Shown: positions 4,400 to 32,544 of the stretch, piece by piece
How positions within the stretch are numbered: the first letter of the stretch is position 1
How the letters are laid out: every line of letters starts with the position of its first letter
Virus record (IMG/VR): IMGVR_UViG_3300022832_000002
Coordinates: 1-35,037 of that record
Length of the DNA: 35,037 nucleotides
Source of the DNA: a virus
Direction: 5' to 3' (one strand)
The notes under the pieces: generated by a model
Database searches by the model: none
What the model saw: only the letters and a program-made list of their open reading frames with translations
What the model was told of the DNA's origin: nothing
Made by a program: the position numbers and the translations under genes

Positions 4400-6121
4400 A
4401 TGGCCAGATCGACACTGACACCAGACCAAGAGCGGCGTAACGCCTATGCAGCGGCAAACATGCTGCCGTTGCCTTTCGACGACAACCGGCCCGTGAACAT
4501 CCTTGATCTGCCTCGGTCTGAATTCATGGCCATGCTGCCAGAGATCCAGCAGAGCGGCGGCGACGTTGACATGATGCTGCGTGAGTATAATCGGCGCAAC
4601 TCTATCTTCGCCCCGATCATGGATGCGGCAGACAGATCCAGCCAAGAGATGACAAAAGCTGGCCGACGCCCTGTCGCTGGCACAATGGGCTTGCTGTCTC
4701 GGAACGTTGAGGGCGACCTTAGCCTGCGCCCAGAGCCGATGGCTGCACTGACTGGGCTTCTAGGCGGCGGGTTTGGCGCTCTTGACCAGACGCTGAACGC
4801 CACTGTGGGCCGTGTGCCTGCCGCTGATGTGGATGCAGCCGCCCTGACGGGCGCTGGGCTTGCTATGGGCGGGGGTGGCCTGCTGTCGCGTCCTGCTGGC
4901 TCTATCGGCATGGGCGGGCGTGTGGCTGCGCCTGATCTTAACGTTGCCAGAAAAGATGCCTCAAGCATATTTGGGGCTGGCACTGAAAGAGTTAGATATA
5001 CTGATCCAAACAGCGGCGGAACAATGGAAGTTGTGGTCCGTCCTGATGGTAGCGCATCCGTATTAGAACTTGAGGTGCCAGAAGGGTTTCGCGGTCAGGG
5101 CATTGGGCAAGCACTTCAATCGCGTGTCATGCAAGATTTCCCAGTAATGGGCGGGCAGGTTTCTTCTAGAGCCGCAGCGACAACCGCTTACAGATTGGGG
5201 CGCAGACCTTATGGCAGGCCGGACGCAACAATCGAAGATGTGTTTCGAGCAATAGACGAAGACAGTTCTGTAAATTTAATAACACCCGCTGCGCAACCGC
5301 GTCCCGTATCACCAGCCCAAGAGGTTGCCGCCCTTCTACGCTCTGGACGTGCTGCCGATGTCACCGACGAAATGATGGCACGGGTGGACCCGCAGGAGAT
5401 GTTTGCGCTTTACCAGCGGGGCGAGACAGGCATGGACCTGCCGATGGATGAAGCCAGTAGGATGCGCCGAGCCATCCAACAGGGATTTGACGTAAACGAT
5501 GAAATGTATCGTGGCGATGCGCCGCGCTTGGCGTTTCAAACAGGCCAAGGCCAGCGAGACCAAATCGGCGTAACAATGTCGTCCAGCCCAGATGTCGCGG
5601 CGTCTTACATTCCGGCTCGTGGTGATGGCGGCATTTACCCGATTTTTTCACGCGGCCAAAGTGATGCAATCATTGATGCTCAGGGCCGAAATTGGAATGT
5701 GATAGACCGCAACGCGCGCGTCGGTTTTCAGGGTGATGATTCATTGCTGCGTGATTACATTCCAGACAGTTACTTTGAGCCATATGATGTCATGTCTGGA
5801 ACGGATTTTCTTGACACGAACGATTTATCTAGGATGTTTCAAGGCTATGGCGCAGATAGGGTCAGGTTTAACGACTTGGTGGATCGGGGAGGGTCCGCAA
5901 AGTATTATGGACCAGAAAGTTCAATGCCGTCTGATGTTATGATGGTTTCAAACCCAGCAAACGTCCGTTCCCGCTTCGCCCGCTTTGATTCCCGACTATC
6001 TAATCTATCCAACCTCAACGCAGCCAACGTATCCCCACTAGCAGGCTTACTTGCTACTGGTGCAGGACAAGCCGAGATGGAACGCCTGATGCCTTTGCTT
6101 GGTTTGCTTGCTGAAAGATAG
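4400..6121 (+). CDS. Large multidomain protein of unknown function. It has an internal GNAT-like motif, Gly/Ala-rich linkers and a C-terminal domain with weak ADP-ribosyltransferase-like features.
   Basis: AAGGAG SD upstream. LELEVPEGFRGQGIGQALQ resembles GNAT motif A. MYRGD ... VTMSSSPDVAASY loosely resembles the R and S-x-S elements of ARTs. The ORF is 573 aa. Confidence 0.7.
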   Translation: MARSTLTPDQERRNAYAAANMLPLPFDDNRPVNILDLPRSEFMAMLPEIQQSGGDVDMMLREYNRRNSIFAPIMDAADRSSQEMTKAGRRPVAGTMGLLSRNVEGDLSLRPEPMAALTGLLGGGFGALDQTLNATVGRVPAADVDAAALTGAGLAMGGGGLLSRPAGSIGMGGRVAAPDLNVARKDASSIFGAGTERVRYTDPNSGGTMEVVVRPDGSASVLELEVPEGFRGQGIGQALQSRVMQDFPVMGGQVSSRAAATTAYRLGRRPYGRPDATIEDVFRAIDEDSSVNLITPAAQPRPVSPAQEVAALLRSGRAADVTDEMMARVDPQEMFALYQRGETGMDLPMDEASRMRRAIQQGFDVNDEMYRGDAPRLAFQTGQGQRDQIGVTMSSSPDVAASYIPARGDGGIYPIFSRGQSDAIIDAQGRNWNVIDRNARVGFQGDDSLLRDYIPDSYFEPYDVMSGTDFLDTNDLSRMFQGYGADRVRFNDLVDRGGSAKYYGPESSMPSDVMMVSNPANVRSRFARFDSRLSNLSNLNAANVSPLAGLLATGAGQAEMERLMPLLGLLAER

Positions 6122-6158: not shown

Positions 6159-6566
6159 ATGGAGAACAAAGTGCCAGCAGGACGTCCAACAGATTACACG
6201 CCAAAACTTGTCGAGAAGGCTTGGGAATACGCCAATGGCGGATGGGAAAATGTTGGCGACCCTGTGCCAAGTGTAGCAGGTTTGGCATGTGAGATTGGCG
6301 TTCGCCGCGAGACTTGCCACGTCTGGGCAAATGACAAAACAAAAGAGTTTTCTAACATCCTTGGCAAAATAGCCGAAACGCAAGAGCGTCAATTGCTGCG
6401 CGGCGGTCTTGGTGGGGTTTTCAACGCACCTATCACAAAGATGATGATGACCAAGCACGGCTACTCTGACAAGGTAGAGCAGGACGTCACATCCAGCGAC
6501 GGATCACTTGCGCCGACGCGCATAATCATCGAGGCCGCATCGGCTGATGACAAACGCGACGATTAA
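6159..6566 (+). CDS. terS: Terminase small subunit
   Basis: (M)PAGRPTDYTPKLVEKAWEY is the typical TerS N-terminal HTH. The gene overlaps the terL start. GTG at 6171 follows GGAGA and may be the true start. Confidence 0.8.
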   Translation: MENKVPAGRPTDYTPKLVEKAWEYANGGWENVGDPVPSVAGLACEIGVRRETCHVWANDKTKEFSNILGKIAETQERQLLRGGLGGVFNAPITKMMMTKHGYSDKVEQDVTSSDGSLAPTRIIIEAASADDKRDD

Positions 6567-8865
6567 ACTTCCGCCGAAGCTGGTGCCTGTCCTGTCGCCA
6601 AACAGGGGCGCTGCACGGTATCGGGCGATCTACGGTGGCCGAGGGTCTGGCAAGTCGTTCAGTGCGTCTCTCATGGCCGCTGTGTGGGGCTACGCAGAGC
6701 CATTGCGGATCTTGTGCGTCCGAGAGTTTCAAGCAAGCATCAAGCAATCCATGCACGCCGAGATCAAGGCGGCGATCGAGGCGCACCCGTGGCTGGAAGC
6801 ACACTACGATGTCGGCGTGGATTACATCCGAGGCGCGAATGGGACGGAGTTTATCTTTCGGGGTCTGCGCCGCAACGAACAATCCATCAAGTCGCTGGCC
6901 AAGATTGATCTGACCATCGTTGAGGAAGCTGAGGACATTCCAGAAGGGTCATGGCTCGCTCTTGAGGCAACGGTGTTTCGCCAGCCTAAGTCCGAGATCT
7001 GGGCGCTGTGGAATCCAAAGACGGAACGCAGCCCGGTTGACAGGCGTTTCCGCCAAGACAATCCGCCGGGCCTGTTCTCAGCGGAGATCAACTGGCGCGA
7101 CAATCCTTACTTCCCCGATGGCCTAAAGGCGCTGCGTGAACAGCAGGAAAAGACGCTCGACAAGGCGGTCTACGATCACGTCTGGGAAGGCGCATATCTG
7201 CGGGCGTTGAAGGGGGCGTATTATGCCGATCTGCTGGATGTGGCGCGCAAGGAAAACCGGATCGGGTTCTACAACAAGCACGGCATGAACAAGGTCTATG
7301 CGGTCTGGGACATTGGCTCAACATCATCGTCAGCGGATGCCACGGCAATGTGGATCGTGCAGTATGTCGGTGAGGAGATCCGCTGGCTGGATTACTACGA
7401 GGCTGTCGGCCAGCCATTCGAGGCGCACGTCAATTGGCTGCGTGAGAACAACTATGCTGATGCGACATGCGTTCTGCCGCACGATGGGGTCAAACACGAC
7501 AACGTCTACAGCGTGACGCCGGAGAAGTTTCTGCGAGAGGCTGGCTTCGCAACGTATGTGGTGCCAAACCAAGGCAAGGGCGCTGCTGTCCAGCGGATCT
7601 ATGCATTGCGGTCCATGTTCCCGCAGTGTCGGTTCAATGAGGACGCAACGGTTGCCGGGCGTGAGGCGCTGTCATGGTATCACGAGAAATGGGACGACAA
7701 GCGCGAGATTGGCTTGGGGCCAGATCACGACTGGGCTAGTCACGCGTGTTTAACCGGTGACGCCATTGTTTCTACCAGCCGTGGGGCGGTGCAGATCAAG
7801 GATGTGATGGCTGGTGACTTCGTTCTAACGCCTGCCGGATATGCATTGGTTGAATGGTCTGGCATGGTAAAGACAGCTTGCGAAACAGTGCAGATAACGC
7901 TTGATGACGGGCGCAAATTAGAAATGACGCCAGAGCATAAAGTATTCACGATTGAAGGCGTTGTTGTTGCAGATGCAATCGGGTATGGTGACATGATAAT
8001 CACAAATGAGGATGTGTCATGTCTGAAGTTGGAGAACGCAAACGCTGCGGGGTATCGGACCGCTTTTTCAGAGAGTATGGCGGCACCAAGTTTTGGTTCT
8101 GGCCTAAGCGCGGCTTTTACGTTTCTCAGCGGGGCGGCAAGCAAGTTATGCTGCACCGTGTCTGGTTGGGCGCTTCAAAATCAGATGAAGCTGTTCCCAT
8201 TGATGGCAATTGGGACAACTTCGACCGTGACAACTGGAATGTGCGAGGCAGGAACGTCGGCAGGAATGTTGCATCAAAGCATCCGTTCCAAACGCTCAAC
8301 GGCGTTAAGTATTACGTCAGCCCAGAAACTGGATACTACTCTAGACGTTACCCTAGGTCAGAATTTATGCACCGAGCAGTATGGATTGATGCGCATGGTG
8401 AAATACCTGACGGCTATCACATACACCACAAAAACCACGACAAGTCCGACAACAGGCCGGCAAACCTTCAATGCATGTCGGCATCGGATCATTCCATGTT
8501 GCACGCTGAAACAAACCCGTGGGTCGGAAGCGACGAAAACAAGCGGCAACTTCGCGCCGCTGGCAAGCTGGCCCGTGGCGGGCGCAAAATGCGCGTTGGC
8601 TGCTGTGAGGTCTGTAATGCGGAATTTGAGACCATCGCGCTCAATCGTAGGTTCTGCGGCAAGAGTTGTCGCTATAAGTCGGAATGGCAGCGAGAAGCCA
8701 GTTTACGATCTGACTGTTAACCATCACCACTGTTATTTCGCCAACGGGGTTCTGGTTAGCAACAGCGATGCTGCTGGCCTTGTGGCTGTCTTCGCCCCGA
8801 CAGCCCGTGGTGAGAGCGCGACCAAGAACGAACCGATCAGACGGAACCTGCGCGGTCTAGCGTGA
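6547..8865 (+). CDS. terL: Terminase large subunit precursor containing an intein (433-aa extein plus 339-aa intein)
   Basis: Walker A YGGRGSGKS, Walker B LTIVEEAED, and nuclease-domain motif HDWASHA|...|SDAAGL split by the intein. It is one uninterrupted 772-codon ORF. Confidence 0.9.
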   Translation: MTNATIKLPPKLVPVLSPNRGAARYRAIYGGRGSGKSFSASLMAAVWGYAEPLRILCVREFQASIKQSMHAEIKAAIEAHPWLEAHYDVGVDYIRGANGTEFIFRGLRRNEQSIKSLAKIDLTIVEEAEDIPEGSWLALEATVFRQPKSEIWALWNPKTERSPVDRRFRQDNPPGLFSAEINWRDNPYFPDGLKALREQQEKTLDKAVYDHVWEGAYLRALKGAYYADLLDVARKENRIGFYNKHGMNKVYAVWDIGSTSSSADATAMWIVQYVGEEIRWLDYYEAVGQPFEAHVNWLRENNYADATCVLPHDGVKHDNVYSVTPEKFLREAGFATYVVPNQGKGAAVQRIYALRSMFPQCRFNEDATVAGREALSWYHEKWDDKREIGLGPDHDWASHACLTGDAIVSTSRGAVQIKDVMAGDFVLTPAGYALVEWSGMVKTACETVQITLDDGRKLEMTPEHKVFTIEGVVVADAIGYGDMIITNEDVSCLKLENANAAGYRTAFSESMAAPSFGSGLSAAFTFLSGAASKLCCTVSGWALQNQMKLFPLMAIGTTSTVTTGMCEAGTSAGMLHQSIRSKRSTALSITSAQKLDTTLDVTLGQNLCTEQYGLMRMVKYLTAITYTTKTTTSPTTGRQTFNACRHRIIPCCTLKQTRGSEATKTSGNFAPLASWPVAGAKCALAAVRSVMRNLRPSRSIVGSAARVVAISRNGSEKPVYDLTVNHHHCYFANGVLVSNSDAAGLVAVFAPTARGESATKNEPIRRNLRGLA
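7747..8763 (+). mobile_element. Intein within terL (Hint splicing domain halves flanking an out-of-frame HNH gene)
   Basis: Block A is CLTGDAIV starting at 7747. Block B is TPEH at 7927..7938. Blocks F/G are VYDLTVNHHHCYFANGVLVSN ending at 8763, followed by Ser at 8764. Confidence 0.85.
8019..8720 (+). CDS. HNH homing endonuclease, encoded in a different frame from the intein that surrounds it
   Basis: GAGGA (8008..8012) lies 6 nt before the ATG. The HNH motif HIHHKNHDKSDNRPANLQCMSASDHSMLH is at 8418..8504. The C-terminal tail CCEVCNAEF...RRFCGKSCRYK looks like a zinc ribbon. Confidence 0.85.
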   Translation: MSEVGERKRCGVSDRFFREYGGTKFWFWPKRGFYVSQRGGKQVMLHRVWLGASKSDEAVPIDGNWDNFDRDNWNVRGRNVGRNVASKHPFQTLNGVKYYVSPETGYYSRRYPRSEFMHRAVWIDAHGEIPDGYHIHHKNHDKSDNRPANLQCMSASDHSMLHAETNPWVGSDENKRQLRAAGKLARGGRKMRVGCCEVCNAEFETIALNRRFCGKSCRYKSEWQREASLRSDC

Positions 8866-8921: not shown

Positions 8922-9026
8922 ATGCGGAAACCTACCAAAGCGCCTATGTTCAAAACCTGCAAGGGTTGTCCGACACCCGGCAAATGCAAGGCCGCTGGCC
9001 GTTGTCTCGCAAAAGGAAAGAAGTGA
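8922..9026 (+). CDS. Tiny basic Cys-rich protein (34 aa)
   Basis: GGAG SD lies 6 nt upstream. The sequence is MRKPTKAPMFKTCKGCPTPGKCKAAGRCLAKGKK. Its stop overlaps the next ATG (TGATG). Too short for the ORF track. Confidence 0.45.
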   Translation: MRKPTKAPMFKTCKGCPTPGKCKAAGRCLAKGKK

Positions 9027-9175
9027 TGGCCAAGGGTCTTTATGCAAACATTGCCGCCAAGAAAGCCCGCATCAAGGCTGGATCTGGCGAGAAGATGCGC
9101 AAGGTTGGCACCAAGGGCGCACCAACGGCGGCTGCGTTCAAGGCATCTGCTAAGACAGCAAAGAAGCCTAAGTAA
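9026..9175 (+). CDS. Tiny lysine-rich protein (49 aa)
   Basis: The sequence is MAKGLYANIAAKKARIKAGSGEKMRKVGTKGAPTAAAFKASAKTAKKPK. It is coupled to both neighbours (TGATG and TAATG). Confidence 0.55.
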   Translation: MAKGLYANIAAKKARIKAGSGEKMRKVGTKGAPTAAAFKASAKTAKKPK

Positions 9176-9795
9176 TGGCGATCAGCACATATTCAGAATT
9201 GCAGACATCAATCGGAAACTGGCTTAACCGCGACGACCTTGCAGCTGTAATCCCTGATTTCATTGCGCTGGCCGAAGCTGGCATTGATCGGGATCTTCGC
9301 CATTACAACATGGTTGAACGATCCGATGCCACGCTTGACAGCCGGTATGTTCAGATGCCGCCAGACTGGATGGAGACAATTCGGTTCGCCATCACGTCAA
9401 ACGACGCTGTGCGGCTGGAACTGGTGTCCCGCGACGACATGCTTGAGTATCGCCAAAACACAATGGACACGCCGGGCAAGCCTCGGTTCTATTCAAACAT
9501 CGGTGACAGCATTGAGGTGTTCCCAACGCCGGACGCAGAATATCCAATGCAGTTGACATACTACAAGCGGACGCCTGCTCTGAGCGGCACGAACGCAGCC
9601 AACTGGCTGTTGCGAACCGCGCCTGACGTTTATCTATACGGATCGCTGATGCAATCGGCCCCGTATCTCATCGACGATGCCCGCTTGCAGACGTGGGCTG
9701 CGTTGTATTCTCAAGGGCTTAATTCATTGCAGCTTGCTTCTGACAACACGCGGTTTGCAGGCTCTGGCCTTAGGATGCGCGTCACTAGCTATTAA
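9175..9795 (+). CDS. Virion structural protein, a possible head-tail adaptor
   Basis: 206 aa. N-terminal YSELQTSIGNWLNRDDL...IPDFIALAE resembles adaptor-type phage proteins I recall. It is the first sizeable gene after the terminase. Confidence 0.5.
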   Translation: MAISTYSELQTSIGNWLNRDDLAAVIPDFIALAEAGIDRDLRHYNMVERSDATLDSRYVQMPPDWMETIRFAITSNDAVRLELVSRDDMLEYRQNTMDTPGKPRFYSNIGDSIEVFPTPDAEYPMQLTYYKRTPALSGTNAANWLLRTAPDVYLYGSLMQSAPYLIDDARLQTWAALYSQGLNSLQLASDNTRFAGSGLRMRVTSY

Positions 9796-9845
9796 ACCCA
9801 GCATGGTGTATAATTGCGCCAGATATATCTGATGGAGAGACAACC

Positions 9846-10232
9846 ATGTCTTTGACAAACGCATTTGAGACAAGCACGCTGCAATACCTGCTGACGACTG
9901 GGAGCGTAACGCGCCCGACAGTTTGGTATATCGGTTTGTTCACGTCTGACCCTACCGACACCGGCACGGCTGGCACTGAGGTGTCTGGCTTTGATTACGC
10001 CCGCACGGCAGTGACATTCACCGTCACCGGCGACACGGCGTCAAACTCTGCCGCTGTTGAGTTTCCCGCTGCAAACGGCGGCAATTGGGGTACAGTCAGC
10101 CACATTGGCATCATGGATGCGTCAACCAGCGGCAACATGATCGTGCATTCGGCGCTGTCCGTTGCGAAAGCCATCAATGACGGCGACGTTTTTCGCATCC
10201 CAACCGGCGACCTTGACATCACGGCAAGCTGA
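9846..10232 (+). CDS. Conserved virion-associated protein (128 aa), function unknown
   Basis: GGAGAG SD upstream. The pattern WYIGLFTSDPTDTGTAGTEVSG..YAR...F resembles a recurrent tail-module family. Confidence 0.6.
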   Translation: MSLTNAFETSTLQYLLTTGSVTRPTVWYIGLFTSDPTDTGTAGTEVSGFDYARTAVTFTVTGDTASNSAAVEFPAANGGNWGTVSHIGIMDASTSGNMIVHSALSVAKAINDGDVFRIPTGDLDITAS

Positions 10233-10864
10233 TGGCGCTGCGCTCAACATATGACACGGGTGTTCACGGGTCTGGTGCTTATGGCGTGCCAGAGACGACA
10301 CAGGCTGTTGCTGCGGTCGGTGTTTCATTTTCCGTGTCTGCGAGTGCAGTAACTATCGTTGAGGCGTCCTGTGCGGCGTCTGTGGGGCTTGTGGCATCCA
10401 ATCCAACGCCCGTTCGCGTGGTGCAGGGATCGGCGGTTGCCAGCCTTGGCGGCATCATGTCTGTCTCTGCCGTCAAGTACGACGTGGATGTGGGTTTCCG
10501 TCCCGGATACGGCCTTTCAACATACGGCACGTTTGTCTATGGCGAAAACTACAGCACAGAAGATGCGAGCGCGTCTGCCAGCATTGGCGTCGGGGCGTCT
10601 TGCTCTGCGGTTGCTGTTCGCCAAAGTGAAGTTGCTGCGAGCGTGGTCTTTGCGTCAACATCGCAGGGCTTTATGTCAATCGTGGGCGCTGTCGTTGATG
10701 CAGTTTCAATTTCGCCGCAAATATCGTATAACCGGGTTAGGTTGATGTCGGCCTCAGATGACATAGGCATAGCCGCGCCAGTATCTGCGCGGTATAAGTG
10801 GATCAACGCGTCCGACCCGGTCACAAGCTGGACTGATGCAGATTATTTGGAAAGGGCCGCATAA
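10232..10864 (+). CDS. Ala/Ser/Val-rich virion protein (210 aa), function unknown
   Basis: TGATG coupling at both ends. Low-complexity, beta-rich composition. Confidence 0.55.
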
Positions 10865-11538
10865 TGGCTGACGGAACCACAACCAATTACACGTTCGTAA
10901 AGCCAGAGGTCGGCGCTTCCGAAGACACTTGGGGAACAAAGCTGAACGCAAACTGGGATGCGATCGATACGCTTCTCGGCGGTGTGACTAACGTAGAGTT
11001 TGCCATCCTTGACGGGGCGACGATCACAACGGCTGAGTTAAACATCCTTGATGGGCTTACTGCAACAACCGCCGAGCTAAACATCCTTGACGGCGTCACT
11101 GCGACAACTGCGGAATTCAACTACCTCGACATCACAACGCTTGGCACGTCCGAGGCCAGCAAGGTTGTCACGGCTGATGCAAACGGCGTCGTGATCTTCG
11201 ACGCCGGTGTGGTCGAAGACGAAACTGCAATCACCTCAACCAGCAACGCAGCGACGATCAACTGCCGCGATGGCAACGTGTTCACGCATGTGCTGACTGA
11301 GAACGTGACCTACACATTCAGCAACCCGCCTGCCTCTGGGCGCGCCTTTGGCTTCACGCTCAAGGTTGTCCAAGACAGCACAGCCCGCACGATCACATGG
11401 CCTGCATCTGTTGACTGGGCTGGTGGTGAGGCCCCTACGATCTCTGCTGGTTCGGGAGAAGTGGATGTGTTCGTGTTCTACACCCATGATGGCGGCACGA
11501 CTTGGTATGGCTTCACGGCTGGGGCGGCGCTGGCATGA
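10864..11538 (+). CDS. Tail fibre protein
   Basis: N-terminal [29 protein letters not shown] is a common fibre N-terminus. It carries three TAELNILDG-type repeats. Confidence 0.7.
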
Positions 11539-12863
11539 GCGGTATTAGCACAAAGCTGTTACAGGCTGCTGCTGGCGGCGGGGTTGTTGTTAGTTGGATC
11601 GCACTTCTAGGCGGAACAGAAAATGACTTCGGCAATGCCGTAGCCATAGACTCGGCTGACAACATCATTGTGACGGGCCGGACCACCTCAGACGGCGCTG
11701 GCGGCACTGACTTCCTCATCGCTAAGCACAACTCTGCAGGAGCTCTGCAATGGGACCGGACTCTAGGCGGAACAGGAAGTGACGACGGCAATGCCGTAGC
11801 CATAGACTCGGCTGACAACATCATTGTGACGGGCCGGACCAACTCAGACGGCGCTGGCGGCTATGACGTTCTCATCGCTAAGTACAACTCTGCAGGAGCT
11901 CTGCAATGGGACCGGACTCTAGGCGGAACAGGAACTGACTTCGGCGCTGCCGTAGCCATAGACTCGGATGACAACATCATTGTGGTGGGTTATACCAACT
12001 CAGACGGCGCTGGCGGCATTGACCTCCTCATCGCTAAGTACAACTCTGCAGGAGCTCTGCAATGGGACCGGACTCTAGGCGGAACAGGAGGTGACGTCGG
12101 CAATGCCGTAGCCATAGACTCGGCTGACAACATCATTGTGGTGGGTTATACCGCCTCATCCGGCCCCTTGAGCGGCATTGACTTCCTCATCGCTAAGTAC
12201 AACTCTGCAGGATCTCTGCAATGGGACCGGAGGCTAGGCGGAGCAGGAACTGACATCGGCACTGCCGTAGCCATAGACTCGGATGACAACATCATTGTGG
12301 TGGGTTATACCAACTCAGACGGCGCTGGCGGCAATGACGTTCTCATCGCTAAGTACAACTCTGCAGGAGCTCTGCAATGGGACCGGACTCTAGGCGGAAC
12401 AGGAACTGACTTCGGCAATGCCGTAGCCATAGACTCGGCTGACAACATTATTGTGGTGGGTTATACCAACTCAGACGGCGCTGGCGGCTATGACTTCCTC
12501 ATCGCTAAGTACAACTCTGCAGGAGCTCTGCAATGGGACCGGACTCTAGGCGGAACAGGAAGTGACATCGGCGCTGCCGTAGCCATAGACTCGGCTAACA
12601 ACATCATTGTGGTGGGTTATACCACCTCAGACGGCGCTGGCATCAATGACCTCCTCATCGCTAAACTGCCGCCCAATGGTTCTAGGACAGGGACATACGG
12701 CTCTTTTACTTATGAAGCTGCCGTACTTACTGATGCACCCGCCGTTTTAACAGACGCACTGGCCGTACTCACCGATGCGCCCGCCGTTTTAACAGACGTT
12801 GTTGCCGTACTGACAGACGCACCTGCCGTCCTCACGGAAGAACTTATAGATATCACGTTATAA
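11535..12863 (+). CDS. SBBP-type beta-propeller repeat protein (7 blades) with a C-terminal heptapeptide repeat, a likely receptor-binding tail protein
   Basis: ATGA overlap with the fibre gene. It has seven 52-53-aa units of [52 protein letters not shown], followed by AVLTDAP x6. Confidence 0.8.
11607..12670 (+). repeat. Tandem 156-bp (one 159-bp) coding repeat, 7 units, near-identical at DNA level
   Basis: The string gaccggactctaggcggaacagga recurs every 156 bp. gccgtagccatagactcgg is invariant in all units. Confidence 0.9.
12720..12845 (+). repeat. 21-bp coding repeat x6 (AVLTDAP heptapeptide)
   Basis: The units are gccgtacttactgatgcaccc, gccgttttaacagacgcactg, gccgtactcaccgatgcgccc, gccgttttaacagacgttgtt, gccgtactgacagacgcacct and gccgtcctcacggaagaactt. 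Confidence 0.9.
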
Positions 12864-12875
12864 GGAGATACAACT

Positions 12876-13343
12876 ATGACCTACACAAAAACACAAGACG
12901 GACAAGTCACAAAGTTTCCTTATACTATTGGAGACTTGCACAAGGACAATCCGCAGACATCTTTCCCTCGCCGCATACCTGATGAAATGCTTGCCTCTTA
13001 TGAGGTATTTGAGGTGGTCGTTGGTGCCGCCCCATCCATCGACGAAACGACCTACAGAGCCGTTCGAGCAGACACGCCCACCTATGCAGGTGACAAGTGG
13101 CATCTTGAGTGGTCGGTTGTCGAAAAGACACCAGAGGAAAAACAAAATTATTACAATGCATCCTCTGCAAGAGTTAGAGCCAAACGCAACCAACTGCTGT
13201 CGGACAGTGACTGGACCCAGATTGCTGATGCTCCTGTTAACGCTACAGCATGGGCTACCTATCGTCAGGCTTTGCGCGACATCACGGATCATGCTAACTT
13301 CCCGTATCTGGGTGATGACGATTGGCCCGTTGAACCCGCATAA
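12876..13343 (+). CDS. Tail fibre assembly chaperone-like protein
   Basis: AAGGAG SD upstream. C-terminal RVRAKRNQLLSDSDWTQIADAP...WATYRQALRDIT matches the tail assembly chaperone motif I know (R..LL..SDW....D.P....W..YRQ.LRDI). Confidence 0.7.
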   Translation: MTYTKTQDGQVTKFPYTIGDLHKDNPQTSFPRRIPDEMLASYEVFEVVVGAAPSIDETTYRAVRADTPTYAGDKWHLEWSVVEKTPEEKQNYYNASSARVRAKRNQLLSDSDWTQIADAPVNATAWATYRQALRDITDHANFPYLGDDDWPVEPA

Positions 13344-13354
13344 GGGAAACACAA

Positions 13355-14833
13355 ATGGCGCTTATCCCGCTCAATATCCCAGCAGGGCAGTATCGCAACG
13401 GCACTGAATACCAATCGCTTGGCCGGTGGCGCGATGGCAACCTGATCCGGTTCCATGAGGGTTCCCTGCGTCCTGTTGGCGGTTGGCGTCAGCGGGGCAG
13501 CGTAGACATTGCGGGCGTTGTCCGTTCAATGCTTGCGTGGGAGGACAACAGCAACAGCCGCCGGTTGGCCCTTGGCACGCACGACAAGCTGTTTGCCATG
13601 ACCGCTGGCAATGCAGTGACTGACATCACGCCTGTCGGCTTCACAGCCGGTCGGGTGGATGCCACGTTGTCTGTGGGCTTCGGTGCCAGCACCTACGGCA
13701 ACCAGACCTACGGCACGCCCCGTCAGGACACGTCAACGCTGTTGCCCGCTACCACATGGTCGCTGGATAACTGGGGCGAATACCTTGTCGGCTGCACGGC
13801 TGATGACGGCAATCTGTATGAGTGGCAGCTAGACTCTGCTGAAGATGCCGCGCAGATCGCCAACAGCCCAGAGAATTGTTCTGCGCTGATGGTGACAGAA
13901 GAACGATCCCTGTTTGCCTTCGGTGCTGGTGGAAACCCGCGCAAGATTGCGTTCTCTGATCGAGAGGACAACACAGTCTGGACGCCGCTTGCAACTAACG
14001 AAGCGGGCGACATCGAAATCCAGACCAACGGCACAATCCTGCGCGGCCTGCGGACCCGTGGGCAGGCGTTGATCCTGACCGATCAGGACGCCCACACAGC
14101 GACTTACCAAGGACCGCCGTTCGTCTATGGCTTTGAACGTGTCGGCACGTCCTGCGGCCTGATTGCGGCCAATGCGGCGGTTGCGATTGACATGGGCGTT
14201 GTCTGGATGGGCGCGCGCAGTTTTTTCACATACAGCGGCGGTGCCGTGCAGGAATTGCCCAGCGAAGTCAGCGATTACGTTTTCAGCGACTTCAACACCG
14301 ATCAGCGGTCAAAGGTTCACGCCTTAGTCAACAGCCGCTGGAACGAGATATGGTGGTTCTATCCAAGCGGTGCCAGCGTTGAGTGCAACCGCTATGTCGT
14401 CTACGACTACGCGCAGAACGTCTGGTCCACTGGCGACATTGACCGGACCGCAGGCGTGGACAGCGGCGTGTTTCGTCAGCCTATGTGGATCGCTGCCGAC
14501 GGTGTTCTATATGAGCATGAGGCGGGCTATTCCTACAGCGGCGCTACGCCATTCTGCGAAAGCGGGCCAATCACGCTTGGGACTGGCGATCAGGTAATGA
14601 GCGTGCAGCAGTTTATCCCAGACGAACGAACGCTGGGCGATGTCACGGCTACGTTTAAGACGCGGTTTTATCCAACTGCAACTGAACGTAGTTACGGGCC
14701 ATTCAGCATGGCAAACCCGACCAGCATGAGGTTCACCGGGCGTCAGGTGCGGATGCGCGTTGATGGCAACTCTGCGGCTGACTGGCGCGTGGGCGTGATG
14801 CGGCTTGATGCTGTCCCAGGTGGCCGTAGATGA
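13355..14833 (+). CDS. Large virion structural protein (492 aa), a possible tail tube/nozzle component
   Basis: Call rests on position in the tail module and size. No diagnostic motif was recognised. Confidence 0.45.
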   Translation: MALIPLNIPAGQYRNGTEYQSLGRWRDGNLIRFHEGSLRPVGGWRQRGSVDIAGVVRSMLAWEDNSNSRRLALGTHDKLFAMTAGNAVTDITPVGFTAGRVDATLSVGFGASTYGNQTYGTPRQDTSTLLPATTWSLDNWGEYLVGCTADDGNLYEWQLDSAEDAAQIANSPENCSALMVTEERSLFAFGAGGNPRKIAFSDREDNTVWTPLATNEAGDIEIQTNGTILRGLRTRGQALILTDQDAHTATYQGPPFVYGFERVGTSCGLIAANAAVAIDMGVVWMGARSFFTYSGGAVQELPSEVSDYVFSDFNTDQRSKVHALVNSRWNEIWWFYPSGASVECNRYVVYDYAQNVWSTGDIDRTAGVDSGVFRQPMWIAADGVLYEHEAGYSYSGATPFCESGPITLGTGDQVMSVQQFIPDERTLGDVTATFKTRFYPTATERSYGPFSMANPTSMRFTGRQVRMRVDGNSAADWRVGVMRLDAVPGGRR

Positions 14834-15498
14834 GCCGTGTGATCCCGCCATTTACCACAGATGCGAAAGCATGGGCTGAAAACATCCGCCGGTATTTGGC
14901 ACGCGCGCTGGACCAATTGGGTGCGCTTGATGCAAGGGCTACGGCGGCAGAGAACGGCGTGCTGCTGTGGGATCGGGACAACAAGTATCCAGTGGTGTCG
15001 CTTGATGGGGAATGGCGTCAGCTTGTCATTGCCAATGGCTTTGGGTTTCTGACGCAGGACAATGACATCACTGCGGCGGCGGATAACACTGCTTATCCGA
15101 TTGTCTTTGATGCGCCGATGGCTGGGTTTTCGGATGGGATTAGCCTTGGGGCATCGCCCAATCAAAGCCGGATTATCTTTGAGGAGGGCGGCGTTTATTA
15201 CCTGACCTTCACTGCGCAGGTTTACAGCACAAGTGGATCGAAAGTTGATTTTTGGTTTTGGCCAAGGATCAACGGCGTTGACGTGCCGACCGGTGCAACG
15301 CGCGCAAGCCTGCATGACAGCACATCAACAAAGCCTGTCACCAAGGGCGCTATCTTTAGCGTAAGCGCCGGTGATTACCTTGAGGCTTATTGGGCAACGG
15401 ACGATCACACGCGCGGGACGCTTGAAGCATTTGCTGCCACTGCATTTGCGCCCGCCACGCCGTCTGTGTCGCTGTCAGTCACAAGGATCAGGTCTTGA
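14830..15498 (+). CDS. Tail protein with a C1q/TNF-like C-terminal jelly-roll domain
   Basis: ATGA coupling upstream. GGVYYLTFTAQVYSTSG...FWFWPRINGVDV...FSVSAGDYLEAYW resembles the C1q globular-domain strand pattern. Confidence 0.55.
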   Translation: MSRVIPPFTTDAKAWAENIRRYLARALDQLGALDARATAAENGVLLWDRDNKYPVVSLDGEWRQLVIANGFGFLTQDNDITAAADNTAYPIVFDAPMAGFSDGISLGASPNQSRIIFEEGGVYYLTFTAQVYSTSGSKVDFWFWPRINGVDVPTGATRASLHDSTSTKPVTKGAIFSVSAGDYLEAYWATDDHTRGTLEAFAATAFAPATPSVSLSVTRIRS

Positions 15499-15854
15499 AT
15501 ATCATTGACCATTGCCGCCCGTGGATTGATGACGCGCTGGAATACAGCGGCGGGACGCACACGTTTGATGACGTTTCTGAGCGGATACTTGACGGCAAGC
15601 TGCAATTGTGGCCTGCCGAAAGGGGGTGCGCTGTCACAGAGATTGTGATATATCCAAAGAAGAAAGTCCTGCACGTTTTTTTGGCTGGCGGCGAGATGGA
15701 TCAAATCATTGATATGATCGACAGCGCCGTAGCTTGGAGTAAGACACAGGGCTGCACCAGCATGACAATCGCGGGGCGACATGGTTGGAAGCGGGTTCTT
15801 GAGAAATACGGATACAAGCCGGTGATGACGGTCTTGGAAAAGGAGTTTGAATAA
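15495..15854 (+). CDS. Small conserved phage protein (119 aa), possibly GNAT-fold-like
   Basis: TTG start overlaps the upstream stop (TTGA). The fold assignment is a weak impression only. Confidence 0.5.
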   Translation: MNIIDHCRPWIDDALEYSGGTHTFDDVSERILDGKLQLWPAERGCAVTEIVIYPKKKVLHVFLAGGEMDQIIDMIDSAVAWSKTQGCTSMTIAGRHGWKRVLEKYGYKPVMTVLEKEFE

Positions 15855-16501
15855 TGGGTCGCGGCAGCACCACAACCGAAACCAAAATACCAGAGTATCT
15901 TGAGAATGCGGCCAAGGGCAATATTGCCCGCGCAGACCAGATCGCGCAAATTGGCTATGTTCCCTATTACGGGCCAGACGTTGCCGCGATGACGCCAATG
16001 CAGATGGCTGCTGGTGGTAACATCAATGCGGCGGCTGATGCATTTGGTTTGGGTATGCCAACATCTGCGAACGCTGGTATGCCGACTGCGATGGATTACG
16101 GCGGAATGGGCGCATATTCTTCTGGCGGGCTTTATGACCAAGCCCTTGCCGAATTGCAGCAGCGCGCACCTGCGCAATTTGATGCACTTACAGCAATGTT
16201 CATTGATCCGGTTACGGGGCCGCGCGATGGCGGTCTGGGCAACAAGGGTGGCGGTGCAGCAGTTTCCCAGCCATCAGATGGCGGCAGTGATCGAGATGGT
16301 CGTGAGCGTATTCAGCAAGCGCGTGAACGCAGCGGTCCAAGCTCGTTTGCGTCCAGTCGCTTGCGATCGGTTCTGCCGGGCGGTGTATATGATCCATTTC
16401 TTGAGCGGCCAGCCAATCAGGCGATTGCCCGCATAACCAATGCGCTGCCAAGCCGTAGCACAACACCTATGCGCCCAGTGGCGCGTCCAAACAGAAATTG
16501 A
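15854..16501 (+). CDS. Virion internal/ejection protein candidate (215 aa)
   Basis: TAATG coupling upstream. Gly/Ala/Met-rich. The call is by position, upstream of other ejection-type proteins. Confidence 0.5.
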   Translation: MGRGSTTTETKIPEYLENAAKGNIARADQIAQIGYVPYYGPDVAAMTPMQMAAGGNINAAADAFGLGMPTSANAGMPTAMDYGGMGAYSSGGLYDQALAELQQRAPAQFDALTAMFIDPVTGPRDGGLGNKGGGAAVSQPSDGGSDRDGRERIQQARERSGPSSFASSRLRSVLPGGVYDPFLERPANQAIARITNALPSRSTTPMRPVARPNRN

Positions 16502-17686: not shown

Positions 17687-19134
17687 TGGTTGATTGGCGC
17701 ACAGATGATCGGGAATTGTTTGCACGCATACTGACTGCCGAGGCTGGCAATCAAGGGCCGGTTGGCATGTTGGCTGCTGGCAATGTCGTTATGAACCGCG
17801 CCAGTCAACCCGGCTATGGCAACGGCGTTCGTGGCGTCATTATGAAGCCCGGTCAATTCTCGCCAATGAACAGCGTCACTGGTTATGCGCGCGGCGAACA
17901 GGGTCAAAACATTGACGCAATCCGCCCAGACGAAACCGCTTACATGGTTGCGGACAGCCTGTTGTCTGGCACGGCTGGTGACATTACAGGCGGCGCAACG
18001 CACTTTTACAACCCCGACATCTCAAACCCATCATGGGCCGAGGGGAAAGATTTCACACGCATTGGCGACCACGTCTTTGGCAGAGCGGATGCGGATCGCG
18101 GCACAACACAGAACACGAGGGCAACAGCCATGAGACAGCCAACGATGATGCCGTCGCAACCGACGCAGGAACAACAGCCCGGTGGCATTCGCGGCCTGCT
18201 TTCCAACCCAGACTTTCTTGACAGCTTGGCCATCGGCTTTGGCGGGCTGACGCAGAACCCCAACCAAGCCTTGATGCAGATGTCTGCGGATCGAATCGCA
18301 GGGCGTGCGCAAACGCGGCAGGATACGCAATCCAAGAACAAGACCATTGAGTTTCTGCGCGCGCAGCCGGGCGGAGAACGCTTTGTGCAGCTTGTTGACG
18401 CAATCGGAGCCGTGGCCGCATTGAAGGCCTATCAAGACTCGCAGGAACCTGCGCCTGACCGTGGCCAGATCCTGAGCGCCGTGCAGATGCGTGAAATGTT
18501 CCCCGGCACACAGATTGAGGACGGTCTTTACAACCTTAAGGCTGACGGCACGGCGAACAAGGTCGGTGGTGGCGGGACCACTGTGAACATGCCCGGCGAG
18601 CAAATGAAGATAATGACTGATGGCCGAATTGCCGTTGCTGATCCTAGCGTTGAAGGTGGCGTCCGCTTTGTGACCGCGCCAGGCAGCCCTGCTGCCCAGG
18701 AAACGCAAGCTGCGCAGGTTGACAAGCAAGCCCAAGCGGCAACAGCGCAAGACAGCTTGGAATTGATTAACAGCGTTTTGAACAGTCCCAGCCTTGAAAG
18801 CGTTACGGGCATGATCCAAGGCCGCTTGCCTGCAATGTCGCAATCAGGGACTGACCTTGTGACCCGAATTGAGCAGCTGCAAGGGCAGGCGTTCTTGCAG
18901 GCGTTTGAAAGCCTCAAGGGTGGCGGCTCTATTACGGAAATAGAAGGGCAGGCTGCAACAAACGCCATCGCAAGGCTTAATCGTGCGCAAAGCGCAGAGG
19001 CATTCAGAGAAAGTCTGCGCGATCTGCAAGAGATTTATCAGCGCGCTGTTGATCGGGTCAGTAACGGCGGATCGGCTGCACCCACAACTACCGGAAACAC
19101 AATTAACGGCGTGACCGTCGGGGAGCCTTACTGA
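17686..19134 (+). CDS. Virion-associated cell wall hydrolase (SleB-like N-terminal domain) fused to a long ejection-protein-like C-terminus
   Basis: LTAEAGNQGPVGMLAAGNVVMNRA...VIMKPGQFSPMN...GATHFYNP matches the SleB/Hydrolase_2 pattern. Confidence 0.75.
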   Translation: MVDWRTDDRELFARILTAEAGNQGPVGMLAAGNVVMNRASQPGYGNGVRGVIMKPGQFSPMNSVTGYARGEQGQNIDAIRPDETAYMVADSLLSGTAGDITGGATHFYNPDISNPSWAEGKDFTRIGDHVFGRADADRGTTQNTRATAMRQPTMMPSQPTQEQQPGGIRGLLSNPDFLDSLAIGFGGLTQNPNQALMQMSADRIAGRAQTRQDTQSKNKTIEFLRAQPGGERFVQLVDAIGAVAALKAYQDSQEPAPDRGQILSAVQMREMFPGTQIEDGLYNLKADGTANKVGGGGTTVNMPGEQMKIMTDGRIAVADPSVEGGVRFVTAPGSPAAQETQAAQVDKQAQAATAQDSLELINSVLNSPSLESVTGMIQGRLPAMSQSGTDLVTRIEQLQGQAFLQAFESLKGGGSITEIEGQAATNAIARLNRAQSAEAFRESLRDLQEIYQRAVDRVSNGGSAAPTTTGNTINGVTVGEPY

Positions 19135-29521: not shown

Positions 29522-29857
29522 CTATCTGAGCATCTCAGCGACTAAGGGCAGGAACCCGTGATCGGGGCCGTGCTTGGCAACCCATGACGCCTTGCCATTG
29601 TGGATCGCTTCGGGGCCGTCTTGGTGATGCGCTTTGCATAGTGGAATGGTATCAAAGTCGCTGGCCCTGCTGGTGCCGTATCGGTCGCAGATCACATGAT
29701 GGACATCTGACGGGCCGGGCTTGCCACATATAACGCATGGAAGCTGCTTGACGCGGGCCATGTGCGCCCGCGCCTTTGCTGTGCCGCGTTCCGGCTTTGG
29801 TTGCTTTAAGCCAAGAGGACCGCGACCGGTGAGGTTCAAAGCAACCACCTTTCCCAT
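29522..29857 (-). CDS. HNH-type nuclease of the Ref/DUF968-like family
   Basis: RVKQLPCVICGKPGPSDVHHV...R.SD..IPLCKAHH gives a Cys/His HNH pattern. It is the last gene of the leftward operon. Confidence 0.65.
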   Translation of the reverse strand: MGKVVALNLTGRGPLGLKQPKPERGTAKARAHMARVKQLPCVICGKPGPSDVHHVICDRYGTSRASDFDTIPLCKAHHQDGPEAIHNGKASWVAKHGPDHGFLPLVAEMLR

Positions 29858-30302: not shown

Positions 30303-30562
30303 TTGTAGGTTTTCTTCGGTGGTGTCTTTGGAAGCGCAGCAATGGCTTCGCGGCCTGCTGCGGTGACGCGGTAGTAAGGCGCTGTTTTTGGTAAAGCAAA
30401 AGGCGTGTTATTTTCAACTGCAACACGTTCAATCCAGCCAGCACGCGCGCAACCAGACATGGTTCTGCTTTGGGCGCGAATGTCTTTGGCTTGAAACGGG
30501 CCATCGATGGTGTGCATGGCAAGCAATGCATACCAGCGAGAATGTGTAAGTGTCGGTTTCAT
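30299..30562 (-). CDS. Hypothetical protein (87 aa), possibly winged-helix
   Basis: ATGA overlap with the ninB stop. Confidence 0.5.
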   Translation of the reverse strand: MKPTLTHSRWYALLAMHTIDGPFQAKDIRAQSRTMSGCARAGWIERVAVENNTPFALPKTAPYYRVTAAGREAIAALPKTPPKKTYK

Positions 30563-30945
30563 GCGTTTTCCCTTTCCGACCATTCGACGTCATGCCTTGA
30601 TCCGTATTCGTAAATGACTTCAATCAGGTCGCTCATTTGTTTTTTGTTTAGCTTTGATGTCCGAAAGCCCAGTGGAAATGGTCCGCTGCCGTCAAGGCCT
30701 TCTGCGAATTGGACCTGATGACCAAGGCTATGCATGAATGCGCATTTCCAAGTTTCTGGCGTCCATTTGCGGCTTTCGGGCTTTGCCAAAGCAATGTCTG
30801 TCAGCATCGCCCACATCTTTGCGTTTTGGTCTGGCGTTCTATCCCCGCCAACGATGCTGACCGTCGAGTAATCGGGCGCAGCGTCAATAAGCTGGTGGGC
30901 ATACATGCGCTGCCGTGGACCAGTCAGTCGGACCTTGTAGGGCAT
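30559..30945 (-). CDS. ninB: NinB/Orf family recombination mediator
   Basis: DQNAKMWAMLTDIA...WTPETWKCAFMHSLG...FRTSKLNKKQMSDLIEVIYEYGSRHDVEWS parallels lambda NinB (DQNRKLWACLGDVS...WKCVF...STSRM...GVKWS). Confidence 0.8.
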   Translation of the reverse strand: MPYKVRLTGPRQRMYAHQLIDAAPDYSTVSIVGGDRTPDQNAKMWAMLTDIALAKPESRKWTPETWKCAFMHSLGHQVQFAEGLDGSGPFPLGFRTSKLNKKQMSDLIEVIYEYGSRHDVEWSERENA

Positions 30946-31118
30946 CACCCAGCCCCCTGCGATGTCCAATGGTCCAGCATGACCCGGATCACATCTTTGC
31001 GATCCATATTCAACGCTTTGACGGTTTGGTTCAGAGTTTCCCATGTGTCTGTTTTATCAATGCCACCTGCGGCTTGTTCGATGCGCTCAAAGGTGTCGAT
31101 GATGTCATTGCGGTGCAT
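30945..31118 (-). CDS. Hypothetical protein (57 aa)
   Basis: AAGGAGG SD lies within the upstream gene end. TGATG coupling. Confidence 0.5.
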   Translation of the reverse strand: MHRNDIIDTFERIEQAAGGIDKTDTWETLNQTVKALNMDRKDVIRVMLDHWTSQGAG

Positions 31119-31813: not shown

Positions 31814-31832
31814 GTTTTTGTCCCTTCTTTTC

Positions 31833-32444
31833 TCAATACGGTAATTCGTCGCCGCACAGATCGGCATTGGCTGCGTGTGTCAGCCTCAGCTTGGCAGCAT
31901 CCTTGGCTGCGCTAACGACTAGCAAGGCTGCTACAGGCTTTGGGATGCGCGACCAGCGTTCCTTGAGGTCGTCAAGGCTGTCTGCCTCGGCCAGATACTC
32001 TCGAGCCTTCTGTGAGGCCTCTGTGTCGATGGGTGCGGGCTTTGGTTCCGCTTTAGGTGGGGCCTTGGATGCGGCATTTCCATCATCATCTTCCGCAGCT
32101 ATGCCTGTGACGCTCTCAAGCCCAATGCGCTTGGCATAGGTCGTGGCAGACTTCATGCCCTGCATATTTTGCTTGTCCACAATCATTGGAACGTCGCAAT
32201 GAATGTGCGTGTCTGTCGCCCCGTGTGAAAGCGTGGTGCGCATCGCTGTTCCGTGTTCGTCGCGTATCACACTGTGATACATCGCAATGCCTTGCTCTGT
32301 GAGCGCGGGAACAGCGACCGAGACGACATCGGCCAGATCGGCATATTTGCTTTTGAAGGCAGGGTTTACCGATCCCTTGGTGACTTTGCCCATGTTTGCC
32401 TGTGCGGCACAGAGAGCCATGTAAATGTTTTTATGCTCAGTCAT
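31833..32444 (-). CDS. erf: ERF family single-strand annealing protein
   Basis: N-terminal NIYMALCAAQANMGKVTKGSVNPAFKSKYADLADVVSVAVPALTEQGI matches the ERF N-terminal pattern (Kd..n..f.skYa.L.dv...v.p.L...gi). Confidence 0.75.
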   Translation of the reverse strand: MTEHKNIYMALCAAQANMGKVTKGSVNPAFKSKYADLADVVSVAVPALTEQGIAMYHSVIRDEHGTAMRTTLSHGATDTHIHCDVPMIVDKQNMQGMKSATTYAKRIGLESVTGIAAEDDDGNAASKAPPKAEPKPAPIDTEASQKAREYLAEADSLDDLKERWSRIPKPVAALLVVSAAKDAAKLRLTHAANADLCGDELPY

Positions 32445-32445
32445 G

Positions 32446-32544
32446 TTACCAGCCCATCCCATGCCCGAAGATCAGGAAAGCGTAGCCGCCCCCGAAGATT
32501 GCGATGGCACCAATCAGATCAGTAAGAAGGTCTTTCATTTTCAT
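32446..32544 (-). CDS. Very small membrane peptide (32 aa)
   Basis: GGAG SD lies 8 nt upstream. The sequence is MKMKDLLTDLIGAIAIFGGGYAFLIFGHGMGW. Its stop lies 1 nt before the erf ATG. Not in the ORF track. Confidence 0.4.
   Translation of the reverse strand: MKMKDLLTDLIGAIAIFGGGYAFLIFGHGMGW

Follow-up and report, generated by a model that had tools for sequence, protein, structure and literature searches.

The window analysed here is the whole 35,037-nucleotide stretch of virus record IMGVR_UViG_3300022832_000002 in IMG/VR (positions 1 to 35,037), and our subject is a gene in it, at 11535-12863, that encodes a 442-residue propeller protein made of tandem SBBP repeat units. Tandem Repeats Finder describes an array of period 156 at 11606-12664, with 6.8 copies, 90% matches, and a score of 1692. 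Seven units span 11607-12665, each beginning in frame with the open reading frame (ORF) at 11535-12863. The start codon, ATG at 11535, was chosen by comparison with all homologues and overlaps the upstream stop codon (ATGA). The parts of the gene are as follows.

11535..12863, plus strand: propeller gene, 442 residues (N-terminal helix, seven SBBP blades, C-terminal heptad-repeat region), from the ORF and its translation
11535..11606, plus strand: N-terminal 24 codons, with a short helix at residues 4-12 and the strand VSWIAL at residues 21-26 (AlphaFold2)
11607..11762, plus strand: blade unit 1, 52 codons
11763..11918, plus strand: blade unit 2, 156 bp
11919..12074, plus strand: blade unit 3, 156 bp
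12075..12233, plus strand: blade unit 4, 53 codons, 159 bp, in which the loop SSGPLSG replaces SDGAGG
12234..12389, plus strand: blade unit 5, 156 bp
12390..12545, plus strand: blade unit 6, 156 bp
12546..12665, plus strand: blade unit 7, shortened to three strands, 40 codons, last residues LIAK
12706..12829, plus strand: heptad repeats, six 21-bp repeats of AVLTDAP type (Tandem Repeats Finder)

The propeller gene and its protein family

An earlier note, made from the letters of the sequence alone, described a seven-unit array of near-identical 156-bp repeats with differences concentrated in a few codons, and this observation in the window gene is confirmed. Sibling units are 90-95.5% identical to each other (90.4-95.5% for one unit searched), and blastn found no further match in the window. 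Among the seven units, 21 of 53 codon columns vary, only two of them purely synonymously. There are 30 variable nucleotide sites, six of them at third positions; twenty of the thirty fall inside ten hypervariable codons that were defined from relatives, with the window gene left out (hypergeometric P=5e-11). The differences are therefore clustered and mostly non-synonymous, as had been claimed. By the method of Nei and Gojobori, comparison of the seven units gives a ratio of non-synonymous to synonymous substitution rates (dN/dS) of 1.98 for all codons together; the hypervariable codons have 4.2, and the remaining columns, hereafter the scaffold, 1.0. A pair of units shows 1.9 synonymous versus 10.3 non-synonymous differences, so that the non-synonymous excess is real, while the description of synonymous divergence as almost absent somewhat overstates the case for the window gene alone. 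The blocks that had been quoted as identical across units are so in part: 'gccgtagccatagactcgg' is unchanged in seven of seven units, 'ctaggcggaacagga' in five of seven, and a long 3' block in four of the six units that have it, with units 1 and 4 one base off each. A variant unit like unit 4, with the extra codon and the SSGPLSG loop, is found in homologue L040 too.

The propeller protein matches the Pfam family SBBP (PF06739) over seven stretches, with 104.6 bits against a cut-off of 20.5 (E=2.4e-30), and also matches DUF5122 (delta-60 repeat) with 58.6 bits against a cut-off of 27. The Joint Genome Institute (JGI) labels its homologues 'delta-60 repeat protein'. By family, this is an SBBP/delta-60 propeller, of a kind already annotated in metagenomes and a few phages. 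AlphaFold2, given a 92-sequence alignment as input, returned a model with a predicted local distance difference test score (pLDDT) of 94.3 and a predicted template-modelling (TM) score of 0.92, in which an N-terminal helix precedes 28 strands (7 x 4) and a further six or seven short strands lie at the C-terminus. The best solved structure found by Foldseek is the propeller of CylK (TM 0.76, root-mean-square deviation 2.4 A over about 400 columns, 27-28% identity), which is also the best solved match by sequence (phmmer E=7e-16). Seven Pfam stretches, the confident model, and the CylK match together bear out the seven-blade SBBP propeller that had been proposed from the translation. Weaker Foldseek matches are the Photorhabdus propeller lectins PLL3 (TM 0.54) and PLL5 (TM 0.58), at 14-16% identity. 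In the viral structure library BFVD, an uncultured Caudovirales phage supplies the closest entry, a 'beta-propeller repeat protein' (TM 0.81), followed by cyanophage structural proteins and giant-virus collagen-propeller proteins.

Three features of the protein bear on how the ring may be closed and stabilised. The N-terminal strand VSWIAL lies in register with the fourth strand of each unit, LQWDRT, with the Trp residues aligned, and unit 7 lacks that fourth strand; because of this, the N-terminal strand most likely completes blade 7 and closes the ring. Behind the blades, six heptads (residues ~391-439) are followed by a partial seventh, IDITL. The Leu-Thr pairs of the heptads are almost invariant across the 92 homologues, and AlphaFold2 places strands at residues 399-402, 406-409, 413-416, 420-423, 427-430, and 434-439 with pLDDT 95-97. 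The count of these short strands, six or seven, is near the blade count, and at the rim a heptad could reach across roughly one blade. Judging from the model, the heptad tail may encircle the propeller like a belt and give each blade an additional outer strand. Each blade also carries invariant or nearly invariant Asp residues at columns 7, 15, 29, and 35. The CylK propeller has acidic sites at its blade junctions, with Ca2+ bound at each junction (PMC8916777), and by analogy the propeller described here may be calcium-stabilised as well.

A protein search found 1,526 homologues at E <=1e-5 among the candidates scored, the best of them 80-86% identical to the window protein, and 91 of the top 120 have the length expected for seven blades. 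Among isolated phages, 79 of 50,697 records have a tblastn match, mostly cyanophages. The earlier note's description of SBBP tail proteins as uncommon fits isolated phages, then, and not environmental viruses, where there are more than 1,500 homologues.

Homologues of 390, 337, 285, about 230, 181, and 129 residues correspond to 6, 5, 4, 3, 2, and 1 blades. Short forms with intact N- and C-termini include L032 (5299-5688), L065, L063, L060, L056, L050, L040, P0011, P0017, and others; P0011 equals the window protein minus an in-register stretch from mid unit 4 to mid unit 6. However, forms with one to six blades occur only on short-read metagenome contigs below 17 kb, mostly of a few kb, whereas every contig of at least 20 kb has seven blades, and seven are kept in each lineage, even where the blades have diverged. 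A lone blade is unable to form a propeller. Since the short forms are confined to small short-read contigs and seven blades persist in diverged lineages, the variants with one to six blades are probably products of assembly collapse across tandem repeats, and the notion that recombination changes the copy number finds no support here.

Hypervariable codons in a homogenised scaffold

We aligned by codon 69 units from ten distinct close alleles. Amino-acid entropy exceeds 1 bit at columns 6, 8, 10, 18, 23, 25, 27, 33, 34, and 36, and the other columns are almost invariant. The striking diversity signal lies between alleles rather than within the window gene. Across nine close alleles, the 330 nucleotides downstream differ at only 0-6 positions (<=1.8%) and scaffold nucleotides are 1.5-5.6% different, while 59-82% of the hypervariable codons differ. 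The pooled ratio of non-synonymous to synonymous nucleotide diversity (piN/piS) is 5.0 for columns 6, 8, 10, 27, and 34, 2.0 for the other five hypervariable columns, and 0.28 for the scaffold. This ratio was used rather than a tree-based site model because recombination invalidates such models. In a consensus of 92 homologues, some as little as 43% identical, no residue holds a majority at the hypervariable columns, and these columns vary in each lineage inspected, including lineages that are 50-70% identical. Both the contrast of 5.0 with 0.28 and the family-wide variability of the same positions support the proposal that selection acts on a few codons. A close allele, L045 (2501-3827, ENA FUWD013231842.1), is frameshifted in unit 1 by the loss of one nucleotide (GCCGTA to GCGTA). 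We rejected a real truncation in this case, as the sequence beyond the deletion reads as an intact seven-blade protein in frame +2, and a sequence or assembly error is the probable cause.

The five top codons have the form NNY (third base T or C) in 87-98% of units: positions 1 and 2 take any of the four bases, and the third is fixed as a pyrimidine. Diversity at positions 1 and 2 of the hypervariable codons is 0.46-0.75. At their third positions it is 0.06-0.10 (0.28 for column 8), compared with a mean of 0.06 for scaffold third positions. A rough Jukes-Cantor correction of these diversities raises the rate ratio from the Nei-Gojobori value of 5.0 to about 14. We considered NNY as a mechanistic rule and rejected it, as L008, L015, L019, L022, L026, and L054 use many codons with a third-position purine (NNR) at these sites. 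Because the deeper lineages use NNR, the NNY bias in the close group reflects recency or residue preference rather than a fixed template.

The relatives L008, L009, and L013 are near-identical and come from different samples. Between L008 (2037-3365) and L009, the sole difference in the 1,329 nucleotides of the gene is a change of CAA to TAT in unit 2, column 10, and the flanks show two differences in 3 kb. The blades that might have donated this change read GGC-TAT at the corresponding place, and the changed blade reads GGT-TAT.

In the scaffold, blades of one gene resemble each other more than they resemble blades of other lineages. Within-gene scaffold identity reaches 0.97 in the window gene and 0.92 in L008, and lies at 0.69-0.76 in L015, L019, L022, L026, and L054; over all genes compared it spans 0.69-0.98, against 0.49-0.73 between lineages, and the within-gene value is the higher in nearly every comparison. 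Blades with the same index are no more alike in their scaffolds than blades with different indices. Lineage-specific scaffold residues recur in most or all blades of a gene, such as NCYV in L022, N(V/A)Y in L026, and NIIV in the window gene. The hypervariable codons differ in 65% of within-gene pairs. For between-gene pairs the value is 72.3% with matching and with non-matching index alike, and none of 2000 shuffles reached the within-gene value. Because similarity is independent of index and exceeds expectation within genes, positional orthology is lost, and this holds for alleles with near-identical flanks too; the blades of one gene exchange sequence with each other. Window unit 5 and unit 4 of L040 show zero differences at the nine hypervariable codons compared. 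Of the two alternatives offered earlier, concerted evolution is supported by identities of 0.97 within the gene against 0.49-0.73 between lineages, and recent amplification is too narrow a description; homogenisation is an ongoing property of the propeller family.

Synonymous scaffold polymorphisms are scattered over units and genes and are linked only to an adjacent non-synonymous site, as in GCT-GAC versus GCC-AAC, or GGT-TAT versus GGC-CGG or GGC-CAG. Strong linkage is limited to two pairs of adjacent codons, 17-18 and 24-25, each of which acts like an old haplotype with two states. No linkage is seen among columns 6, 8, and 10, despite a spacing of 6 nucleotides. The shuffling of old haplotypes was therefore rejected as the sole source of diversity, and recurrent change at each codon is needed.

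In the AlphaFold2 model, each unit has strands at columns 6-14, 20-26, and 35-41, and a fourth that runs from column 47 into the following unit, up to its column 2. Every second residue varies where strand 1 begins (6, 8, 10) and where strand 2 finishes (23, 25, 27); further variable columns are at the tip of the loop that joins strands 2 and 3 (33, 34) and at the beginning of strand 3 (36). Because the antiparallel-meander topology orients those strand ends and that loop alike, we infer that the variable columns other than 18 point to one axial face. The turns between strands 1 and 2 and between strands 3 and 4, on the opposite face, are nearly invariant save for a two-state Asp/Asn at column 18. 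The top face of any propeller carries both the loops that connect blades and those between internal strands, and the latter are unusually long in CylK (PMC8916777). If strand 1 is the inner strand, the variable face of the model would be this canonical top face. The suggestion that variable sites sit in loops of one face agrees with the topology as regards the single face and needs correction as regards the loops, since sites are found on strands 1, 2, and 3 as well.

Function of the propeller and origin of its diversity

The genes on either side of the propeller gene, and one fibre gene near it, suggest where its product acts.

9846-10232: Gp80-type podophage fibre protein (fibre I), near the propeller gene
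10864..11538, plus strand: upstream tail-fibre protein, 224 residues, matching PHROG tail-fibre families with E down to 8.5e-16
12876..13343, plus strand: tail-fibre assembly chaperone, 155 residues, Pfam Phage_tail_APC E=2.1e-18 at residues 98-155, PHROG tail fibre assembly

With a tail-fibre gene directly upstream and the Phage_tail_APC gene starting 13 nucleotides downstream, the tail-protein setting that had been assumed for the propeller gene is supported. The C-terminal domain of the upstream fibre protein, from about 11271, is common to relatives that have the propeller, and blastn homology to contigs L001 and L002, which carry the closest relatives, is confined to window positions 11271-13215, corresponding to 2869-4804 of L001 and 9744-11669 of L002. 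The remainder of those contigs and the gene order of their backbones are unrelated to the window; the window has GP4-like fibre genes, and L002 has SU10-type adaptors and an Mtd_N gene. Identity to three relatives is 98-100% over 12699-13178 (the C-terminal tail of the propeller and the 5' part of the chaperone gene), 75-98% over the blades, and only about 50-70% where the upstream fibre gene ends. The shared region takes in about the first 113 codons of the chaperone gene (to 13215), and its right breakpoint lies inside the conserved Phage_tail_APC domain. Judged by these alignments, the propeller gene forms a cassette of about 1.7-1.9 kb with the last part of the upstream fibre gene and two-thirds of the chaperone gene, counted from its 5' end, and this cassette has moved between unrelated backbones. 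A fibre-tip module swapped together with its chaperone is the usual picture. The upstream tail-fibre gene has a 39-bp tandem repeat of its own at 11004-11108, with three copies of a T(T/A)...(x)T motif.

We regard it as probable that the gene encodes a receptor-binding propeller shaped by concerted evolution and diversifying selection. The protein would be the distal, host-recognising subunit of a tail fibre, a seven-blade SBBP ring with six or seven heptad strands behind it. Recombination would shift the cassette among otherwise unrelated phage backbones. Recombination or gene conversion between blades, within a gene and between the alleles of co-infecting phages, would homogenise the 156-bp scaffold and erase orthology, and diversifying selection on nine or ten codons per blade would drive those codons close to saturation. 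The selective agent is probably a set of variable host surface receptors, and selection is probably frequency-dependent. The outcome would be about 63 variable residues on one face of a disc, set in an invariant scaffold.

Several points weigh against this account. Inside the window gene alone, dN/dS is only about 2. The NNY form of the top five codons with background third-position diversity, the lack of linkage between hypervariable codons 6 nucleotides apart, and a pair of the L008/L009 type that differs by CAA to TAT alone would be compatible with targeted mutation as well. The alleles are drawn mostly from short-read metagenome assemblies, in which chimeric joins across 156-bp repeats could inflate the apparent shuffling. 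The mapping of variable residues to one face comes from topology, not measured exposure, and both the placement of the propeller in the virion and its binding of a receptor are deduced from gene order.

The propeller might instead be carried on the virion or secreted without binding a receptor, as a lectin that sticks virions to particles or mucus or as a CylK-like enzyme. The closest solved structure is indeed an enzyme, CylK, and the propeller lectins PLL3 and PLL5 are among the weaker matches. We consider such a role unlikely, given that the gene lies between a tail-fibre gene and an assembly chaperone and is exchanged with both, and that diversity on one face is typical of arms-race recognition surfaces. 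Catalysis by CylK, moreover, needs a second, Ca-binding domain (PMC8916777), which the propeller protein lacks.

A phage-encoded generator that works without reverse transcriptase is improbable in our judgment, although it accommodates much of the pattern. It would operate either by micro-conversion among blades, using the ERF and NinB proteins, or by a codon-local mutator, with selection acting only as a filter. Hypervariable codons differ in 72.3% of comparisons between alleles whose flanks are at least 98% identical, a value equal to that of random blades; codons 6, 8, and 10 are unlinked; third positions remain at background diversity; the L008 and L009 genes are distinguished by two bases of a single hypervariable codon, and their 3 kb of flank by two more; and the blades of one gene are more alike than expected. 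The window also encodes recombination functions.

27710-28930, plus strand: DNA repair exonuclease, beside the recombination module
29522-29857, minus strand: DUF968/RecA-dependent nuclease, part of a recombination module at 29522-32462
30559..31044, minus strand: NinB (Orf-family) recombination protein, Pfam NinB E=9.6e-20
31833..32462, minus strand: ERF-family single-strand annealing protein, Pfam ERF E=5e-19

These Pfam matches agree with the earlier attribution of ERF and NinB to the phage, and ERF, NinB, and the RecA-dependent nuclease could promote blade exchange over short homology. However, a ratio of 5.0, or about 14 after correction, is high yet within reach of strong diversifying selection in very large populations, and conversion merely reshuffles existing variants. 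No hairpin, template, or nickase site was identified. In the L008/L009 case, a donor reading GGC-TAT and a product reading GGT-TAT would need a conversion tract that starts exactly at the codon.

Concerted evolution with diversifying selection can also be set against a recent one-off amplification drifting neutrally, in which the differences would be noise under relaxed constraint. Units that are 90-95% identical and a scaffold dN/dS of about 1.0 in the window gene agree with that scenario. It is nonetheless very improbable, because the scaffold is under purifying selection across alleles (piN/piS 0.28) with variation in ten columns, the same columns vary in lineages only 50-70% identical, the clustering is significant within the window gene itself (P=5e-11), and all lineages keep seven blades.

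A classical diversity-generating retroelement (DGR), in which a reverse transcriptase copies a template repeat with errors at adenines and overwrites the blades, is scarcely credible and was rejected: the five top codons do resemble the NNY products of AAY, flanks are nearly identical between alleles, and relatives have a gene with an Mtd_N domain upstream, but the candidate fails on reverse transcriptase (none among the window ORFs scanned with Pfam and PHROG, nor listed in the 14-17 kb around the L001 and L002 genes), on template copy (blastn of a unit against the window returns the seven units only), and on adenine specificity. As to the last, 27 adenine columns are at least 97% invariant across the 69 units, ten of these being third positions (in CTA, GGA, ACA, GTA, ATA, TCA, GCA, and CAA), most of which are free to change silently; the AAC codons at columns 19 and 42 are invariant; the majority base is G at 10 variable columns, A at 9, C at 8, and T at 4; and the deeper lineages have many NNR codons at hypervariable positions.

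Related systems and the rest of the window

Judged by mode of evolution, the propeller matches the WD40 repeats of the fungal HET-D and HET-E proteins, and it resembles the targets of DGRs in outcome, not in mechanism. The WD40 repeats of the HET-D/HET-E/NWD family, 'high internal conservation' repeats of fungal allorecognition receptors, undergo concerted evolution and positive selection (Paoletti et al. 2007, PMC1805685; Chevanne et al. 2010, PMC2873952), and mutation supply from many repeat copies, reshuffling, and positive selection have been proposed to act jointly (PMC1805685). In both systems, propeller repeats are near-identical in DNA, are exchanged within and between genes, and have a handful of positions per repeat under diversifying selection, which in the fungal proteins lie on the interaction surface. 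Recognition specificity resides in the fungal repeat domain; the counterpart proposed here draws on gene order. The two differ in repeat family (SBBP of 52 residues versus WD40 of about 42), in setting (a phage fibre protein versus an intracellular eukaryotic NOD-like receptor), in the number of variable positions (nine or ten per blade versus four), and in repeat number, which is apparently fixed at seven here and varies in the fungi. Repeat-induced point mutation (RIP) is not involved in the phage case.

The DGR target Mtd of Bordetella phage BPP-1 is similar in having few randomised codons of NNY type in a constant scaffold between near-identical flanks. It differs in fold (C-type lectin rather than propeller) and in having one C-terminal variable region rather than variation over seven tandem units, and for the propeller no reverse transcriptase or template repeat was found and adenines are invariant. 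The gp38 adhesins of T-even phages have hypervariable segments between conserved glycine-rich motifs, and recombination there reshuffles specificity. They share with the propeller the flanking of hypervariable segments by short conserved DNA motifs and exchange of the adhesin as a module; their fold and repeat architecture are different, and gp38 has no DNA-homogenised tandem array. The C-terminal propeller of CylK (PDB 7fh6, 7ron) belongs to the same repeat family and has the same seven-blade fold. However, CylK, an alkylating enzyme of cyanobacteria, has a Ca-binding domain in addition at its N-terminus, and its blades are diverged, without the pattern of hypervariable codons in a homogenised array.

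Among viruses, the repeat family and fold are shared by cyanomyovirus 'virion structural proteins' (S-PM2, Syn1, S-RIM44), a beta-propeller repeat protein of Leptospira phage LE1, a tail fibre of Nitratiruptor phage NrS-2, and the uncultured Caudovirales protein A0A6J5N4Z3. The links to this group are tblastn matches at 24-30% identity, PHROG 8510 and 701, and BFVD matches with TM up to 0.81, and several of its proteins are annotated as virion or tail-fibre proteins. These relatives are much more distant, and the combination of homogenised scaffold and hypervariable codons is not reported for them in the searchable literature, where searches on phage SBBP and hypervariable propellers also returned no precedent for this design in a phage receptor-binding protein.

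The textbook routes by which phages track host surfaces are the swapping of whole fibre modules and mutagenesis by DGRs. The propeller suggests a third design, in which seven recombination-homogenised blades with about nine free codons each would present some 63 variable residues on the face of a rigid disc. Because the family is large, with more than 1,500 metagenome homologues, and moves between unrelated backbones, it may be a common determinant of host range in aquatic phages. An invariant scaffold with defined variable positions would also be a natural template for engineering binders or phage host range. Were a generator independent of reverse transcriptase to prove correct, it would amount to a second, DGR-like phage route to randomise a receptor-binding surface. 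For metagenomics there is a warning, in that short-read assemblies probably collapse such arrays to one to six blades.

The phage is new, and the propeller gene lies inside its fibre module. A megablast search of 9000-16000 against the 50,697 phage records returned zero matches, and the capsid protein is at most 45% identical to those of known phages, such as Sinorhizobium phiM5 and Pelagibacter HTVC106P. Nearby genes in the window encode virion structural proteins, ejection proteins, portal, scaffold, and capsid (Pfam and PHROG).

A few other ORFs merit description. The 390-residue protein at 16514-17686 matches a PHROG 'DNA ejection protein' family and has at its C-terminal end (residues 319-373) a 'chaperone of endosialidase' domain, Peptidase_S74. 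Tail spikes and fibres are the usual carriers of this intramolecular chaperone. Two large ORFs, at 4400-6121 and 19134-21395, have no informative match: the 573-residue ORF matched no Pfam or PHROG family, and the 753-residue ORF matched only a PHROG family of unknown function. The large terminase ORF at 6547-8865 is unusually long at 772 residues. Terminase profiles match mainly its residues 9-400, and separate weak matches at residues 448-489 and 717-757 suggest a possible extra C-terminal region.

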